64,000 nucleotides of DNA, taken from contig CBDDIJ010000002.1 of the NCBI GenBank assembly GCA_965228855.1, forward strand, positions 1,664,001 through 1,728,000. The letters are read 5' to 3'. Shown here piece by piece: positions 18,761-38,336 of the stretch. Every line of letters starts with the position of its first letter. Within the stretch, counting starts at the first letter, position 1. The notes under the pieces were generated by a model. That model was not told where the DNA came from. It saw only the letters and a list, made by a program, of their open reading frames with translations, and did not search any database. The translations under genes were made by a program, and so were the position numbers. This DNA comes from Candidatus Obscuribacterales bacterium (GTDB lineage: Bacteria; Cyanobacteriota; Vampirovibrionia; Obscuribacterales; Obscuribacteraceae).

Positions 18761-19300
18761 TCAGGTCCACTCGATGTTTCTCAGGCACTCTTTGATTTCC
18801 TTGACGTACTTGGGATAGGAGCTCGTCGGCGCGAGAAAGTATATTTGTTGCACCACGCAACCGCTGTCATCTGCCGCGATGTATAGCGAGTAGGTGTCCC
18901 ATTCCTGCCTGAGCCATCGCCCCTCGACGACCAGGAGTGTCCTGCCTCCTGTGACCTGGGTGTGGATGGCTAGTGGCTTAAACGAGTCCGGCTGGCAGAT
19001 CTCTTCAAGCATGCCGGCAATGCTTTTGATTTCTTTGGCGGGGAGGCTGTGAGGCGGCGTCTCCAGCACTGCCTTGAACGCAGCTCCTGTCGGCAGGTCA
19101 TATGGGAAACCGCGATAATAGAAACATAGCCGCGTGTCTTCGCTGTCTTGCGGCGAAAATTCTCGCAAGCTCTGTTCGTGGTTGTCACTACCCGTGGTGG
19201 CGGTTTCCGTCCAACCAGCGGGCAGCAAAAGACGCTTAATTTGACCGTGGTCGACGACTTCTGTCGAGATGTTTACTGAATCCAATCGATTTCGTCCCAT
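18761..19300 (-). CDS. Hypothetical protein, PsbP/Mog1-like; candidate immunity or chaperone for the upstream giant protein
   Basis: LLLPAGWTE...QVTGGRTLLVVEGRW...QQIYFLAPTSSYPKY...LRNIEW pattern; overlaps the giant gene's stop by 28 nt. Confidence 0.6.
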   Translation of the reverse strand: MGRNRLDSVNISTEVVDHGQIKRLLLPAGWTETATTGSDNHEQSLREFSPQDSEDTRLCFYYRGFPYDLPTGAAFKAVLETPPHSLPAKEIKSIAGMLEEICQPDSFKPLAIHTQVTGGRTLLVVEGRWLRQEWDTYSLYIAADDSGCVVQQIYFLAPTSSYPKYVKEIKECLRNIEWT

Positions 19301-29609: not shown

Positions 29610-30422
29610 GTGGAGTCGTCGATGACCGAAGCTAAACCGATTGTTCAAAATGGAATCGATCAGCTCCGCTCTGTTGTAGCGCAGGATAAGCTCAATTTTG
29701 ACGAGTTAAGTGTTAGACTCGCGCCGCTTCTCGAACTCCAGAGCGCTTCGCAACGGCTGCACTCTGCCTTCGCACTTCAGGTCGGCCAGTTGCACGAGCA
29801 CCTCACAGAAGATCAATTGGACGCGTCTATAGATGGTTTACAGTCAATGTACTATGAGCTGCTGATGACCACTTCGGTATTGCTGCGTTTGCGGAGCAGC
29901 GATGCGATGAATCATCAAAGAAAACTGATTGAACTAGCAGCTTTCATTCACGAACATTTAGCGGACGAGGTCAGTGCGAAGCGCTGGAAGGACGCTATTC
30001 ATCCCGGAAAGCTGGAAACTATAAAGCGGCAGAGATACAAGAAGCGATATCAGGCGCATCAGTTAGTAGACAAGCATTTTAAGAGAAGCGAGACTGAGCA
30101 GGGGCACCTGATCGGTTTAAATTATGATGCAGCCTGCTTCTTCGTACATCCGTCCGTGATTTCTAGTCGCGATCGTATCGTCAAGAATGAGAAGAAATAT
30201 TCGCTGCACTCTCACGATCAAAAAACAGACGAGACTGTCGCCTCCGTCGTCAGTCTCGTTATCGGTGTTCATGGATTGTTTGTTGCTTTGCTTGATTCGC
30301 TTGCCGCTGCGCTAAGCGTTTACGATGGTTTCGCCCTGGACGTCTGGCAGTCAGCGATGGACGAGTGGACAGAAGTCTGGGAGCCGCTTAGCGAAGACAA
30401 TGAGAACGCGTATGCTCGTTGA
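29610..30422 (+). CDS. Hypothetical all-helical protein, weakly DUF5677-like
   Basis: 270-aa ORF; the YDAACFFVHPS motif recalls the Y..xS..VH motif of DUF5677-type proteins (weak). Confidence 0.55.
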   Translation: MESSMTEAKPIVQNGIDQLRSVVAQDKLNFDELSVRLAPLLELQSASQRLHSAFALQVGQLHEHLTEDQLDASIDGLQSMYYELLMTTSVLLRLRSSDAMNHQRKLIELAAFIHEHLADEVSAKRWKDAIHPGKLETIKRQRYKKRYQAHQLVDKHFKRSETEQGHLIGLNYDAACFFVHPSVISSRDRIVKNEKKYSLHSHDQKTDETVASVVSLVIGVHGLFVALLDSLAAALSVYDGFALDVWQSAMDEWTEVWEPLSEDNENAYAR

Positions 30423-30447: not shown

Positions 30448-32613
30448 TCAGGCTTTTGCGGATAGTGGTAACTCAATCGTCACAGATTCCATATTCTCGT
30501 CAGCTTCGATGCGTACTTTTCCATTATGCGCGTTGATTATTGCTCTTGATAGGGCCAACGCCAGACCGCTGGACTCCACGGCTTCATCGCTTATGACCGG
30601 TACGAGGGCGTAGCGGGACAGTGAGGCATCGCGTACTTCTTCCGGTAGATGGAAACCTTCAGCGGTGATCGTGATTGAAGCAGCTGGCGCTTCTTCTGCA
30701 AGCCATATTCTGATCTTCGCGTCGGGTGAGGCGAAGCGCTGTACTAGTGAAACAAAATGCGCCAGAGCAAACGTCATCCGTTCTTGATCGACTCTTACGC
30801 TCACGTTGGGATCAAAGGTGGCTGGCGTAATAGTGATCGAAGCTCTGTTCAAGTGCTCGACCGCGATCGTCGCTTCGACCAGACGTAACAGGGAAATTTG
30901 GTTTAGCTCTAAAACGCCTAGCCCGGCCTCGAATTTTTCCAGATCAAGGAAGTCGTTGATTAGATTGACCAGGTTGGCTACGATAGTGTTGGCATTTCTC
31001 AGTGCTGAGCCTTCTTCGGCACTGCTGAAGTTCGCTCCCTCGACCATTATCTCGAGTGTGCCGAAAAGCGCTGTAAGGGGGGAGCGCAAATCGTGACTGA
31101 TCATGGCAACAAAGTCACGCTTTACGTTTTCAATCTGGAGCCTCGCAGAAATGTCTCGAAAGGTAGCCAGATAGGTTCTCTTGGAATATGCGTTTGCGTA
31201 GGAACGCATGCTGAATTCAGCGGGAATGATTTCATTGGCGAAACTTTTCACATTTAGCTCGATTGGATTTGCTTCGGCAATCCGTGCGATCTCTTTTAGC
31301 TGCGCACCGGTGGTGGTGGCGCCGGTGATCAGGACTCCCAGATCTCGAGCGAGTAACTTGGTTGGATCGCAGCGGAATAAATCCGTTGTCGCCTTGTTGA
31401 GAGAGCTAATTACGAAGGATTCGTCAGTTGTTACGACGGCAATCGGCATGCGATCAACAATGTTTTTGAACTCTTCTTGTCGTTGTCGAATTTTGCGAAT
31501 CTGCGAACTCAATTCGGTGACGTCGTGACCAACGAGAACAGCTGTGTCACCCTCATCTGAACGCCGCCCCTTCCAGGATATATCAATCGTCTGACCCGAT
31601 GGCTTTCTCAAGGTTGTGTCAAATTCTATATCGATGCCATCAGAAAACAACTGGTTCAATTCTGCCTCGATATCACTCGAGCTATCGAAGAAGGGCAGGG
31701 ATGCGAACTGTTTTTCTATCAGGTCTGTTGTTCTAAAACCCAGCTGGTCTGCGCTGCCCCGTCCGATAGAATAAATTTTGCCGGATTCGTCGATCGAACA
31801 AACCACACTTGTGGCATGGTCGAACATGACCTTTTCGTTGCTCTGAAACCGTTGTATGTTGGCTGCAATTTCGTGAAGTTCAATCGCGAGCATGTCGATT
31901 TCATCGGTACCTCTCGGTAATTCCAACAAGGGAGCGCCACTGCCAATGGTATTGATGTCTTCGAAGATTTTGTCGAATCGCCGGGTTATATCAGAGAAGA
32001 ATTTGTTATACAGCGCCAGGGCAATGGCAATATTCGTGCCCAGGCCAACTACAAATAATGCTCCTAAAGCCACCAGAGACAACTCGCTTAATGACTCTCC
32101 TGCATCTTGCTCCAGTTGCTCGTACATCACAACTATTTTGTCCGCATGCTCGAAGAGTCCATCCCACTCTCGCTCTATTTGCATCAGGTCGGAAGCACGA
32201 TCTCTTAAACTGATAAGCCCTTTGGATATCGCGGGGATGTTACCGTACACATAACCGTGCAATTGTCGAACCTGTTCGCGCGCAGGACCATCCCCTACAA
32301 GTTTTTCCAGGGTCTTCATGCTTTTCGGAAGCTCGGTCCAGTCCTTCTCTGATTGCAGCTTATCCCACTGGTGTCGTCCGTGGTGTATTGCATTTATGAA
32401 GTGTCTGTAGACAAGGTGCATAGAGAGCAGAGACTGCATCTCTGTCGCACAGACAGCGCGAATCACTTTGGTGGCTTCGCGCTGTCTGTCTACACGCCAG
32501 GCTATTTGCTCGATGTAAATCCACAATATGCCGATGAAAATTGCTTGCACGATGAAGATCGAGCCGAATACGAGAAGCGCATTTTTAGTCAGCTGGGATT
32601 TGATTGAGATCAT
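30448..32613 (-). CDS. Membrane sensor histidine-kinase-like protein (TM-HAMP-PAS-PAS-HisKA) with intact H-box and degenerate ATPase domain
   Basis: [13 protein letters not shown] is intact. The N-box reads [13 protein letters not shown]1 reads TAEGFHL and G2 reads SSGLALALS. Confidence 0.88.
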
Positions 32614-34793
32614 ACGTTTCCGCTCTTCGCGTTTTCTTTAAACTTGGGCAAACGGAGCCAGAAGCAGCTTCCTTTTCCTTCTTCGCTGATTACGCCTATA
32701 CAGCCACCGTGCTTTTCGACTATCTGTTTGCAAATCGCCAGACCCAAACCGGTTCCCGTGCCTCGCTTCGCATCGGATTTTTGAACTTGAACGTAAGACT
32801 CGAAAATCTTTTCGTGCATATCTGCTGGTAAACCGCGTCCCTGATCCACGACTCTTATTTCGATTTGGTCGCCGAGGTCGGCTTGCTCCACGGCTATGGT
32901 CGTGTTTGCCGGGGAATATTTGATTGCATTGGTTAGCAGATTGACAATAACTTGAATCAATCGTTGTTCGTCTGCTAGCACTGTGACGTCGGAGGCTTGT
33001 GACGTCACAGTCAACTTTTGCAGCTCGGCATGATCACGCACGGCGTTGACGGCGCCGGTAACGATATCGTTCACCGCGCATGGTGTCAGCTCATCGACAA
33101 GCTTTCCTGACGCGAGCTTCTCTATGTCGAGAAGTTCATCGATTAACTTGAGCAAGCGATCGATGTTGGCTAATGTTCTCATAATTCGCTGTTGCTGTTT
33201 TTGCTGCGCAGGTGAAGCTTCACTCTCTGGTTTTGGAGCTTTTCCGTAGCTCGATATAATTCCGCGTACTCTAGCCAGTGGATCGCGCAGGCGCTGTCCA
33301 AGCAGGTTTACGTAGTCGCTTTTCATTCTCTGAAGTCTTACGCGTTCTGTCGCGTCCTCGAAAAGAACAACAACGCGTTCGTCCTTATCTCTTTTCTCCT
33401 GACCTACCGTTACATCTAAGAAACGTCTCTCGCCTGTCTCTAAAGTAGTACAGCGTATCGACGATGTATCTTTGCCAGCCCTCAATAATGCCGAAAGAGG
33501 CTCACCGTCGGACATGGGCGTCATGAGATTGTCGAGGCTCTGTCCGCGAAGTTCGCTACCTCCGAAAAATTGTAGAGCTGTTTTATTTGCGGTTTGAATT
33601 CGGGTATCATCTCCGAAAGTAATTATCCCGACCGGCATGTTATCTATCGATTCGCGAATTTGTTTTTCCTGTTCAATCAATAGGTTTTCAAACCGTTTGT
33701 TTTCGCTTGCATCACGAACGAAGCAGAAGAACGATCCGTTAGACGCAGACCACTGCGCCGACCAGAGCGTTTGAATCAAGTTCCCATTCTTCATTGTCAC
33801 AGTATCTTCCGCTTCGTAACGTGCGTCTTGTGACGCGTCTGACATCTTGTCGATGAAAACCGACGGAATCAGCTCTGTTTTCAGAATCGTTGAAACGGTC
33901 GCACCGATGAGCTCATCAGGTGTGAAGCCCCACTGCTCGATGCACGCTGGACTGACGTCGATGAATACCCCCCTGCTATCCAGTGAGCAAATTACATCGA
34001 TTGAATGTTGAAAGAACGAACGCTCCTGCTCCGCCGCGATCGCAAGTTCTGAACTCAGTCTTCGGAAAAGGGCATCAACAGCATCGATCTCATCGTTGCC
34101 ACTCTCGATTTCAATCAACGGTTCGCCTTCGCCGAAGCGCGCTACGTTTTCCGTAACTTGATCGATTCGTCTTGCTATCTGTTTCCAGAAATACAGACCC
34201 GCAACAATCACAGTAACGAGGTTTCCGAAGAATCCCAGTGCCAACAGTTGTCTGATGTGGTCTAGATTTGCTCTAGTTTTTTCAGCGGACTCATCGTTGA
34301 GTCCGTAGTGCGACATAAACTTACGGGTGCGCTCCGATATGCCCATGCGCAAATCTTGAGAGCGTTCTGCTTGTTCTCTTGAAACATTGAGCCCAAGCGC
34401 ATATTGTTTTTCGGCATCAGCAATGTATTCACGTTTGGCTTCTTGGATCGAATTCCAATCTCGTAATTCTCTGGGTGAGTCCTTTACGAGCTCGTAAAGC
34501 GCATCTAGTTGCTTGTCGAGCTGCTCTATGTAACGCGGATAGGTCGACGATTTCACGTTGTCGCTTTGTAGCGTCAAAAACTGTTCGCGTACCAGACCAA
34601 AATTCATCCGCACATTCTGTCGAATCAGGCGAGCAATATGGGCTACTATCGTGCGTTCTTTATTTTGCTGTTTTAAACTTGCCTGAAGCGAAAATATTTG
34701 ACTCGACAAAATGCCCACAAACAGAACTTCCGTCGCCACCAGAAAGCTGACTACTAGAAGTCCTCGTTGAGAGATTGTGAGTGAGCGCTGCAT
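32610..34793 (-). CDS. Membrane sensor histidine-kinase-like protein (TM-HAMP-PAS-PAS-HATPase) with intact ATPase domain and no phospho-acceptor His
   Basis: The H-box position reads [32 protein letters not shown] and GTGLGLAIC are intact. Its TGA overlaps the next ATG (ATGA). Confidence 0.88.
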
Positions 34794-35144: not shown

Positions 35145-38100
35145 ATGAGAAGGATCGAGCTTGCGTTGACAAGTCACCTTGCGAATCTGAAGGTGTTCGC
35201 GATTGCCGGGACTTTGCTCCTTGCTGCGACGCAACCGGCGTCGGCGCGCAATGATTTCTCTTTTCGCGATTTCCGGGAGCAGAATCCCGAGTTGGGACGG
35301 CATGAGGCGCGCCAGGCGTTTAAGTCCGAAGTTCGCGACTTGCGTCAGAACAGTCGTGTGTTCCAAGCCCCTGTAATCAACAATGTCCCATCCACCGACA
35401 CTGTTCAAGTTCAAATCGAAACTCGCGGCAACCATGCTGGCCGCGTGAACAACACGCTGCGCAATCGCTCCGCTCAGATAGGCGATTCCGGTCAATTGAT
35501 CCGCCTGAAAAGCGGCCTCGATCTCGATTTGACCTCGACTCAGCGCAATATCTCCTTAGGCAAAGGTCTGTTCGCTGATGTCGACGCTGTTCAGATAACC
35601 TTTGGCGGCGAAACCAAAACCGTCCACGCCGGCAGTCTGGTCTCCGCTGCGGAATATGTTGCTGTAAAACAGGTGCTGGATGGCGGTTCCCAGAAGGTTG
35701 TTATCGACCGCAGCGGTCGGGCTAGTGGCGGCGAGGTAAACCTTGAAGCTGTCGCATCGGATAGAACAGCTCTTCGTGCATCGTCGCTCGTGATCGCCGA
35801 AGGTGTCACCACATCCGGTGACTTCGGTCGCAACTCAGAATTTAAACTGCTTGGCGATCTGAGCAACTATGGAACATTGTATGCCTTCTCCAGTGACAGC
35901 GGTACAAAGTCTGGAGCGATTCGTGCTCACGACATCAATAATTACAAGGGTGCCACTATCGATTCCAATGTTGATTTGACGCTCGATGCTTCCGGCAATC
36001 TCAATAACTTTGGAACGATTTCGTCCACTGGCAGTCTCACGCTGACCGCTGCAGGTGCGGTCAATAATAGTCGAGGTGGTTCGGTCAAAGCGTCCGGCGA
36101 CATCAATTTGCAGGCTGATGCGGTCAACAATCAAGGCACGATAGAGTCCACCGGTAGCAATATCAATCTGCAAGGTTCGACCCTGGCGTTGATGAACGTC
36201 GATAACAACAAAGGAACCCTGAAAGCGCTAAATGGCGCCATTAACGTTCGCGATGCTTCATATTCGGGAGCCTTCGATTCATACGTAGATGGCGGCGACT
36301 TGCTCAGCAAGGAAGTGAATGTTCACACCGGATACGGTGTCGCTAATGTGTACGTCAACGAATTGACCGGCGTGCTGAATCAATACGGTTCTGCCGCGCA
36401 TATCAAGGCAGATACTGACACTCTCACCTTGGGTACAACCTGTCTGACCGGCGATCCCACGATCTACAACACATCTGGCGATATCAACATTACCGCGGAT
36501 ATCAGCGTGGCAGAGAACCTCGTTTTCGTTGCCTCCGGCGACATCATCGTAGCTGATAACGTCAATATTTTCGCAGGCGATGCTTCTCGCGGTTACGAGA
36601 TGAATTTTATCGCTGGTGCGAGCTTTGTCCCCACGGGCGGTGGTACTGACTCTCCGACGGTCCCTCCTCTAACTGGTGCTGGTGGAGTTGACTTGAACGG
36701 TAAAGCCTCGAAGACTGGAGGCGGCATCATCATGGGCACTAATGTCACAGTGACATCGAGAGCTTCAAACACATCTGGTGACTCCAACGGTGACGGCATC
36801 TTAATGGTGGCATTCAAGGGCAAAACTACGAATGCCGGTAAAGTCGACATCTCAGGCGCGACTATCAAGACGGGTGGAAGTGGGACAGGAACGAACGGTT
36901 CTTTTTTCGTGCTCGCTGCCGGCACCAAAGGCGATGTCATTAAAACGGGCGTAATCGACACCACTGGTGGTTCAGACGATAGTAATTTCGAGGGACTAAT
37001 CGGTTTATATACAGTAGACATTATTACCGAGAAGCGGACCTTCGATCCGAACATTCCGGACACTGGGCACGTTATCTACGATGCGAACGGCGTAAACATC
37101 TCGGACTATCGATTGACCGGAAATAACTTCAGTAAAGGCGGTAACCTGATTATCAACGATGTTATTCCTGGTGACGATATTAAAGGTCGGTCAATGGACC
37201 TTTACGGTGGAGGCGGAGTCAGTATTCTTGGACAGGTAAATTCTTTCTCGCTTGATCCAGGTTCCTTCGGTACCAGCATCGATATGGTGACTAACGACGC
37301 AATAACATCCGGACCAAACGGTTCGCTTAAATCGGAATCCGTAATTTTCCTGATCGCTACCAATGTAATAGGTTCATCTACAGCTCGCATCGTCACTGAC
37401 GCACCTGACGTTGAATTCTTCAACCAGAAAGGCAAGGATGTCTGGGTCACGATTCAGGGCACCGGAGAAGTGGCTATAACCGGACTGGCAAGCAGCAAAG
37501 GGATTATAGATGTCGATGCGTCGGGCAGGCAGGTCAGTTCGCCATTTAACTTGCTCTCCGCAGGTACCGTGAACATAGTTGCTGATAGTCTGGGTGGGAC
37601 CAATCCTTTTCCCGGTCCTCCGCGGAAGCTCAACAACGTTGATGCAGGCGTTCTTAACTTGCATGTTTTGAACGGAGATATAGACAACACGAATTTTGGT
37701 CCGGTCAGCGCACAGTTTGTGACTCTTACCGCCGACAACGGCTCCATTGGCACGAGCAGCAGCTTGCTCGCGGCTCCCACGGGTGTCAAACAGATGGTGC
37801 TCACTGCAGGTAATGGCGGTGTGTTTGTGAACAGCGCGAGTTCGAACTCAATCTCTGTAAGCTCTTCAGCAACCGGCGCGACGACAATTTTCGCGAACGG
37901 CAGTCTGGAGCTTTTAAATGTCTCTTCTCAAGCTGGGGATACGACGATTCAGACCTCCAATGGTACATTGACGGTTGCCGGCAATGTGACAGCGAAGGAT
38001 TCTTTGAGCATCGTCAACACTAACACTAAAGGCAAGTTTGCAATCGACAAGAACATCGTCATCGCCACAGATGGAACCGCCGGCGGTGACGGAAACATTC

Positions 38101-38336
38101 TTCTTTCCGTCGGACCGACTAATATTACTCCGGTGAGTTCGTTGCCGGCCAACGTGACGACTGACATTACCGGAACCGGAACTGTCACGATCACCGGCGG
38201 CGGTATCAAAGCAAAGTCGCCAGACAATGTGTTAATCATTCCGGCTGAAGCAGGAATCACTGTTAATAACGGTTTGAAGAGCTCAAACTTCACCATGGGC
38301 GGTGGTGTTCAGATAACCGCGACTAACAATAACTAG
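35145..38336 (+). CDS. Large secreted filamentous-haemagglutinin-like beta-helical protein or adhesin
   Basis: Signal peptide ending ASA-R; G/N/T/S-rich repeats such as GNLNNFGTISSTGSLTLTAAGAVNN and VNNQGTIES. Confidence 0.75.
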   Translation: MRRIELALTSHLANLKVFAIAGTLLLAATQPASARNDFSFRDFREQNPELGRHEARQAFKSEVRDLRQNSRVFQAPVINNVPSTDTVQVQIETRGNHAGRVNNTLRNRSAQIGDSGQLIRLKSGLDLDLTSTQRNISLGKGLFADVDAVQITFGGETKTVHAGSLVSAAEYVAVKQVLDGGSQKVVIDRSGRASGGEVNLEAVASDRTALRASSLVIAEGVTTSGDFGRNSEFKLLGDLSNYGTLYAFSSDSGTKSGAIRAHDINNYKGATIDSNVDLTLDASGNLNNFGTISSTGSLTLTAAGAVNNSRGGSVKASGDINLQADAVNNQGTIESTGSNINLQGSTLALMNVDNNKGTLKALNGAINVRDASYSGAFDSYVDGGDLLSKEVNVHTGYGVANVYVNELTGVLNQYGSAAHIKADTDTLTLGTTCLTGDPTIYNTSGDINITADISVAENLVFVASGDIIVADNVNIFAGDASRGYEMNFIAGASFVPTGGGTDSPTVPPLTGAGGVDLNGKASKTGGGIIMGTNVTVTSRASNTSGDSNGDGILMVAFKGKTTNAGKVDISGATIKTGGSGTGTNGSFFVLAAGTKGDVIKTGVIDTTGGSDDSNFEGLIGLYTVDIITEKRTFDPNIPDTGHVIYDANGVNISDYRLTGNNFSKGGNLIINDVIPGDDIKGRSMDLYGGGGVSILGQVNSFSLDPGSFGTSIDMVTNDAITSGPNGSLKSESVIFLIATNVIGSSTARIVTDAPDVEFFNQKGKDVWVTIQGTGEVAITGLASSKGIIDVDASGRQVSSPFNLLSAGTVNIVADSLGGTNPFPGPPRKLNNVDAGVLNLHVLNGDIDNTNFGPVSAQFVTLTADNGSIGTSSSLLAAPTGVKQMVLTAGNGGVFVNSASSNSISVSSSATGATTIFANGSLELLNVSSQAGDTTIQTSNGTLTVAGNVTAKDSLSIVNTNTKGKFAIDKNIVIATDGTAGGDGNILLSVGPTNITPVSSLPANVTTDITGTGTVTITGGGIKAKSPDNVLIIPAEAGITVNNGLKSSNFTMGGGVQITATNNN

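Follow-up and report, generated by a model that had tools for sequence, protein, structure and literature searches.

Sensor kinases are generally taught as homodimers. A few described systems divide the work between two different proteins. In the FasB/FasC(/FasA) system of group A Streptococcus, two adjacent sensor-kinase-like genes are accompanied by one regulator, FasB and FasC form a heterodimer in two-hybrid assays, the kinase domain of one partner has been proposed to phosphorylate the His of the other, and both the kinase domain of the His partner and the membrane part of FasB are dispensable; the evidence for this system, published in 2025, consists of genetics and two-hybrid data (PMC12675982). 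In Rhodobacter sphaeroides, ATP binding and phosphotransfer reside on two complex-forming proteins, CheA3 and CheA4 (PMC3591291). An engineered NarX subunit carrying a His-to-Gln change (H399Q) phosphorylates an N-box-dead subunit (N509A) in trans (bioRxiv 2024.11.11.622942). Here we describe two overlapping sensor-kinase genes, A and B, from a 64,000-nucleotide stretch of a Candidatus Obscuribacterales bacterium (GenBank assembly GCA_965228855.1, contig CBDDIJ010000002.1, positions 1,664,001 to 1,728,000; hereafter the window). As judged from their sequences, A and B most likely form an obligate trans-acting heterodimeric kinase, A contributing the ATP-binding site and B the phospho-accepting His.

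A first-pass annotation of the window had described two open reading frames (ORFs) of 727 and 721 amino acids joined by an ATGA overlap. We confirmed this arrangement on the minus strand, and the overlap suggests that the two genes are translationally coupled. The reciprocal lesions that it reported were also found. The upstream protein, A, has intact N, G1, F and G2 boxes and a Gln (codon CAG) for the H-box His, while the downstream protein, B, keeps the His (CAC) and has lost the N-box Asn residues and the DxGxG motif at the aligned columns. The N box of A reads NLLTNAIKY and its G1 box DQGRG; at the columns of A's ATP boxes, B has a stretch of 15 residues and SSGLAL. Pfam scores follow the same division: A matches HATPase_c with 108.5 bits and HisKA with 23.3 bits (below the cut-off), and B matches HisKA with 48.7 bits and HATPase_c with 28.4 bits. 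By the canonical features of a class I (HisKA) autokinase, A thus has all four boxes but lacks the His and the acidic residue following it (H+1), whereas B has the His and the H+1 acid but lacks the boxes. In FasB/FasC, one of two adjacent kinase-like genes is the His donor and has a dispensable ATP domain; by sequence, A and B show this arrangement as well, B being the putative donor. The two proteins share 20.7% identity. As for the architecture given in the annotation, two transmembrane (TM) segments in each protein were supported by hydropathy and the PAS domains by Pfam. The HAMP domain had no Pfam match in either window protein; it was matched in 5/44 homologues of B and 0/27 homologues of A, and is weakly suggested by Atlas look-alikes.

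We observed that this division is repeated across the genome. Its 104 kinase cores comprise 85 intact ones, 10 that are His-less with intact ATP boxes, 8 that bear the His with a dead ATP domain, and 1 dead at both sites. Each of the eight His-bearing, ATP-dead genes overlaps a His-less, ATP-intact gene (8/8). Both gene orders occur among these pairs, the members carry zero, one or two PAS domains depending on the pair, and the residue at the His position of the His-less partner is Q, R, E, T, N, D, S or I. Reciprocal couples make up 8 of the 16 adjacent kinase couples. When the labels were shuffled 100,000 times, five or more such couples were never reached, and eight were never reached when 100,000 shuffles were confined to members of tandems. 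Four of the eight pairs descend by copying from a single ancestral pair, which leaves five independent cases. In a general sample of 76,471 HisKA domains, 0.9% were His-less (PMC12632262), against 8/104 kinase cores here when just the His-less members of reciprocal pairs are counted. Two His-less, ATP-intact genes are unpaired (C2:2095684 and C5:110976); the latter (C5:110976-112541) encodes a lone GAF-containing kinase with no partner. The core dead at both sites belongs to a lone 811-amino-acid PAS pseudokinase (G000 C2:1273485-1275920). At another locus (L233:1566-7443), four coupled genes form two reciprocal pairs back to back.

The same lesions are maintained in relatives. Among the best 64 of 120 matches to the B core, 45 proteins (P0001-P0044 and P0046) have the His and lack the ATP boxes, all 45 with the same lesions, and 19 are intact or nearly intact kinases. 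None of 14 A homologues (P0121-P0134) has the His and all 14 keep the ATP boxes. The catalytic boxes of A are invariant in 27/27 homologues, in which R536, R539 and R546 are also kept (N543 in 26/27), and H507, D508, R510, S511, P512 and T519 of B are kept in 44/44. Over all fetched loci we counted 67 distinct His-only genes. Nine were excluded for contig ends (four inside the ATP domain, four upstream and one inside the partner), and 55 of the 58 with a readable neighbour overlap or abut a His-less, ATP-intact partner. In the other direction, a His-only partner was verified for 54 of the 55 genes that are His-less and ATP-intact; the partner of the remaining one is cut off. Reciprocal pairs occur in at least 21 of the family's 104 genomes, spread over 9 genera, a lower bound at about 27 candidates scored per genome; the 102/104 genomes matched by the B-type profile are not a count of split pairs, as this profile also matches intact kinases. 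When the whole class was searched (201 genomes, E 1e-85, with 13 candidates scored in each), matches came from this family alone, at a threshold too strict to show absence elsewhere. A 1242-amino-acid protein, P0015, is a natural fusion of two complete TM-sensor-PAS-kinase modules of the same family; it was considered as a fused A-B and rejected, both halves being intact.

We compared the conservation of positions counted from the His on helix 1 (+7, +8, +11, +12, +15) and helix 2 (+31, +34, +37, +38, +41) of the dimerization and histidine phosphotransfer (DHp) domain, always setting an A against the B of its own locus. Five of these positions, +8, +11, +15, +34 and +37, distinguish HK853 from its variant 4JAS, and we take them to be regulator-specificity positions. 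A split pattern of conservation was first noticed in the lineage of the window pair and then examined in five lineages. In 5/5, B had the better conserved helix-1 face (0.58-0.93, against 0.16-0.48 in A) and A the better conserved helix-2 face (0.36-0.80, against 0.15-0.34 in B), and at buried positions neither was consistently more conserved. Set against DivL-like and ChpT/Spo0B-like roles, the helix-1 docking face of A scored 0.16 (0.63 in B) and the helix-2 face of B 0.15 (0.80 in A). Among all five-position sets, the helix-2 set falls in the top 0.09% (0.4% without +41, 0.5% without the window lineage). Arg or Lys at +41 is present in 43/43 A genes, 9/43 B genes and 82/101 intact kinases. 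The working surface would thus be made of helix 1 of B, helix 2 of A and the ATP domain of A. Such a composite requires an A-B dimer connected in trans and is hard to reconcile with A and B as homodimers of their own.

Homodimeric proteins of both kinds are nevertheless known. DivL-type proteins are His-less homodimers that bind a regulator through their own DHp face, and in ChpT/Spo0B-type proteins a homodimer that bears the His beside a pseudo-ATPase domain takes its phosphate from a receiver domain. As separate homodimers, A could be a pseudokinase regulator of the DivL kind, and B could sit in the membrane as a phosphotransferase or phosphatase resembling ChpT/Spo0B and supplied by other kinases. 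B does keep all of the His chemistry, the genome offers more than 100 kinase cores and many receiver domains, and ChpT and Spo0B are described as dimeric phosphotransferases (PMC11481889). Docking on a homodimer, however, requires both helices of one protein type, yet the helix-1 face of A and the helix-2 face of B vary, and the overlap of the two types in 8/8 cases, in both gene orders, would be left unexplained. We regard separate homodimers as improbable.

In the heterodimer that we favour, the ATP domain of A would phosphorylate His507 of B in trans, and B would pass the phosphate on to an OmpR-type regulator encoded elsewhere. The four-helix bundle would have one working face, the other having decayed, and neither homodimer would be an autokinase. 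The His, H+1 Asp and H+4 Ser of B probably retain phosphotransfer and phosphatase chemistry. Such an enzyme may go back to a homodimeric kinase whose gene was duplicated in tandem: the two products would have formed a mixed dimer in which the active site was present twice, and one copy of the site was subsequently lost. A heterodimer with a single active site is also the core of the first-pass proposal and is supported by conservation, purifying selection, recurrence in eight pairs and the composite helix-1/helix-2 signature. The annotation had relied on the statement that many class I kinases phosphorylate in trans, and so passed over the cis-type nearest relatives; the split faces do fit trans.

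Several points weigh against the favoured reading. The nearest solved relatives are HK853, WalK/VicK and DivL (structure 4Q20, by sequence match). HK853 reportedly acts in cis. Intact members of the family share its spacing of 48 between the His and helix 2, as do most members of pair lineages 5, 6, 7 and 9 (42 to 59 in the window lineage). WalK acts in cis (PMC5633905), and whether a kinase works in cis or in trans is set by the handedness of the DHp loop (PMC6798134); a cis-only fold would make the A-B heterodimer dead. The conservation of helix 2 in A could reflect contact with A's own working ATP domain. Three loci are exceptions to the pairing: at L035 the partner has a His followed by Asn at H+1, at L126 a G2-altered kinase lies beside an intact one, and at L263 the partner has a stop before G2. 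One B gene, at L034, also has an in-frame stop. The relatives are kin, representing about five to seven lineages, and most loci were fetched with B-type queries. Finally, a tree of kinase cores (see below) does not reject a single origin of all A types (p-AU 0.49).

The A-type gene L035:2321-4513 has CAC where its orthologues have CGN (Arg), one base away, and is nested among these orthologues in the tree; its His is likely a non-functional re-gain. The stops at L034:4513-6705 and L263:1028-2788 are single in-frame stops in one member of the pair and could be sequencing errors or recent losses.

With cis geometry, the A-B heterodimer would not autophosphorylate; its role would instead be that of a phosphatase or sink under signal control, acting on a regulator that receives its phosphate elsewhere. 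The HK853-like loop length of the family and the cis action of WalK speak for this possibility, as does the polar residue that B keeps at H+4, which is used for phosphatase activity (motif as in PMC6798134). Against it, the catalytic boxes of A are invariant in 27/27 homologues, and the fetched flanks of sister operons contain no further kinase for their regulators. The working face shared between the chains also fits trans geometry, for which the split faces argue. We consider a cis-type phosphatase very unlikely. Modelling the two kinase cores as a complex with ATP/Mg yielded scores of 0.29, 0.36 and 0.13 (mark 0.32), with controls not folded, and was not used either way; a single-sequence model of the B core was unusable (pLDDT 35).

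Selection was estimated as the ratio of nonsynonymous to synonymous substitution rates (dN/dS) against two close orthologues. Gene A gave 0.078-0.084 and gene B 0.044-0.061. By part, the values were 0.06-0.07 for the pseudo-ATPase domain of B, 0.15-0.17 for the His-less DHp domain of A, and 0.04-0.11 for the periplasmic domains (A 0.04-0.06, B 0.04-0.11). The persistence of the lesions and of adjacency in relatives under dN/dS below 1, which the first-pass annotation had put forward as a check, was thus borne out (55/58 His-only genes, dN/dS 0.04-0.08). That A and B are decaying leftovers of a tandem duplication, a notion to which the presence, within the same genus, of intact tandem pairs with this architecture (L080-L083, L085) and the stops in two related loci lend some colour, is hardly credible and, as recent decay, was rejected, since dN/dS is 0.04-0.08 over both genes, identical lesions recur in 45 B-type proteins and 14/14 A homologues, and the intact pairs form a separate clade. 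As members of that separate clade, intact two-PAS tandem pairs were also rejected as orthologues of the A-B pair.

We examined the origin of the split pairs with two trees. In the core tree, built from ATP-intact kinase cores with the H-box left out, the A lineage of the window pair is one clade (support 99) among intact two-PAS kinases. The second tree used the sensor, HAMP and DHp regions without the H-box and the ATP domain (59 rows, one dropped for want of an anchor). In it each A lineage groups with its own B (support 96, 86, 85, 88 with a long-branch warning, and 84), and A and B of the window lineage form a group (92) that also includes one intact kinase. This tree rejects an all-A clade (p-AU 6e-6). 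When two long-branch lineages and the DHp columns were removed, all-A and all-B clades were again rejected (p-AU 4e-6 and 1e-7), and A and B of the window lineage no longer formed one group. These data are best read as several independent splits following tandem duplication, probably five or more within this family. Gene conversion long ago, or an exchange of sensors between neighbouring genes, could imitate multiple origins.

Possible earlier stages are present in the same family. Symmetric intact tandem pairs (L080-L083, L085) keep Arg+41 in both partners. Four motif-intact pairs are asymmetric: L072 and L073 (G000 C2:2414976-2418676 and C3:2881627-2885222), L054 and L138. In 4/4 of them the upstream partner has Arg+41, and the downstream partner has Gln or His and no basic residue after the F-box; the four belong to one lineage and hence count as one observation. 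These asymmetric pairs are possible intermediates or hidden split pairs. We tentatively suggest, at rather less than even confidence, that this Obscuribacterales family repeatedly turns homodimers into obligate one-site heterodimers, from a symmetric through a motif-intact asymmetric to a reciprocal pair, and that motif-intact tandems elsewhere may be hidden heterodimers. If so, the outcome would be a built-in library of two-sensor kinases, and the helix-1/helix-2 signature would reveal unrecognised heterodimers among motif-intact tandem kinases elsewhere. If the heterodimer reading is right, the family would provide several natural replicates of the homodimer-to-obligate-heterodimer transition, together with likely intermediates; trans geometry could be inferred from sequence alone, and asymmetric kinases with one active site would be at hand for studies of mechanism and the design of two-input sensors.

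The regulator served by the window pair is predicted to be encoded elsewhere. No receiver domain was seen near the pair among 150 of 200 candidates scored, the nearest being about 14 kb away, in line with the earlier remark that no cognate response regulator is adjacent. An OmpR-type regulator with intact Asp lies directly downstream at 7/7 loci of lineage 8 and co-oriented upstream at 6/10 loci of lineage 5; L084 also has one upstream, as does a paralogous pair of the window lineage, there at a distance of about 0.6-0.7 kb. In all, three types of sister pair have such a neighbour, and in this genome the pairs at G000 C5:787192-791072 and C3:3369896-3373503 possess a regulator of their own. 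None was seen beside lineages 6 and 7 or the window pair. The genome has 43 OmpR-like regulators, and the 10 of these that lie more than 3 kb from any kinase are candidate partners. The first-pass suggestion of a two-sensor AND gate found no support beyond the selection on both sensor domains, which one site at the heterodimer interface fits equally well as two separate inputs do, and we consider the gate unlikely.

The features of the pair are collected in Table 1. A 270-amino-acid ORF with no Pfam match (29610-30422, plus strand) is convergent with gene B across a 25-base gap, and an ORF of 1063 amino acids with haemagglutinin-like repeats (35145-38336, plus strand) is divergent from the pair. 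Further off, an ORF of 2736 amino acids (19273-27483, minus strand) contains segments that resemble FHA when inspected by eye. Scans for promoters and terminators gave no more than chance numbers (6 vs 4.9 and 5 vs 6.3, respectively). Contigs of two public runs are identical to the stretch, and those runs may be its source.

Table 1. Positions in the window of genes A and B and of their predicted parts (DHp, dimerization and histidine phosphotransfer; CA, catalytic ATP-binding).
Feature	Position	Strand	Remarks
Gene A, 727 amino acids	32610..34793	-	His-less, ATP-competent putative subunit; TM-sensor-TM-likely HAMP-PAS-PAS-DHp-CA
Gene A periplasmic sensor domain	34248..34703	-	CHASE3/four-helix-bundle-like (weak); CHASE3 in 6/27 homologues
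Gene A Gln500 (CAG) replacing the phospho-accepting His	33294..33296	-	H+1 acid also replaced (Arg)
Gene A helix-2 outer face R536, R539, N543, R546	33156..33188	-	predicted half of working face
Gene A catalytic ATP-binding domain	32643..32972	-	N, G1, F and G2 boxes intact; Pfam HATPase_c E 3e-31
Gene A N box	32916..32942	-	
Gene A G1 box	32832..32846	-	
Gene A G2 box	32736..32753	-	
ATGA stop-start overlap of genes A and B	32610..32613	-	
Gene B, 721 amino acids	30448..32613	-	His-bearing putative subunit, dead ATP domain; architecture as gene A
Gene B periplasmic sensor domain	32080..32517	-	CHASE3/four-helix-bundle-like (weak); CHASE3 in 3/44 homologues; Atlas look-alikes
Gene B H-box and helix-1 docking face	31048..31101	-	His507 (CAC) 31093..31095, H+1 Asp, H+4 Ser
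Gene B pseudo-ATPase domain	30460..30789	-	N-box Asn, G1 and G2 glycines gone; domain kept; HATPase_c E 2e-6

The comparison with known systems places the pair as follows. Gene A resembles DivL in lacking the His and keeping the ATP domain, and gene B resembles ChpT in bearing the His beside a pseudo-ATPase domain. Unlike ChpT and Spo0B, B is a membrane sensor with a variable helix-2 face, and unlike all three proteins each A/B subunit conserves just half of the docking face. To our knowledge, DivL, ChpT and Spo0B are homodimeric, and their genes do not come in coupled reciprocal pairs. GacS/RetS is a kinase heterodimer formed through DHp domains, but it is inhibitory and both partners also homodimerise (PMC12189002 and PMC12675982). 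Two other papers go no further than speculating on kinase heterodimers (PMC11481889 and PMC12997753). CheA3 and CheA4 are CheA-type proteins, each without the other's domain, whereas A and B each have a DHp domain, an ATPase-fold domain and a membrane sensor of their own. The survey in the CheA3/CheA4 paper counted HisKA proteins without an ATPase domain (PMC3591291); pairs of the A/B type, in which neither subunit has lost a domain, would be missed or mislabelled by counting domains. We found no published account of such pairs in Obscuribacterales in the open literature, subscription journals being mostly outside this coverage.

The NarX H399Q/N509A pair has the same His-to-Gln change as A, but it is man-made, with forced dimerisation of point mutants of one protein, whereas A and B are natural paralogues, 21% identical. 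In the Fas system the sensors have six TM segments and the regulator is ComE-like, against two TM segments, HisKA and PAS domains and, at sister pairs, an OmpR-type regulator here. FasB moreover retains DHp histidines, and cis phosphorylation was not excluded there (PMC12675982), whereas here the lesions are reciprocal in sequence and recur in eight pairs of several origins. As far as its sequence tells, the A/B pair would work like FasB/FasC and NarX H399Q/N509A and belongs to neither family nor to the CheA3/CheA4 type. The finding draws its weight less from the window pair alone than from the repeated origins, the signature of a composite face and the likely intermediates. FasB/FasC is the closest precedent, and what is new here would be the repeated origins in one family, together with likely intermediate stages.

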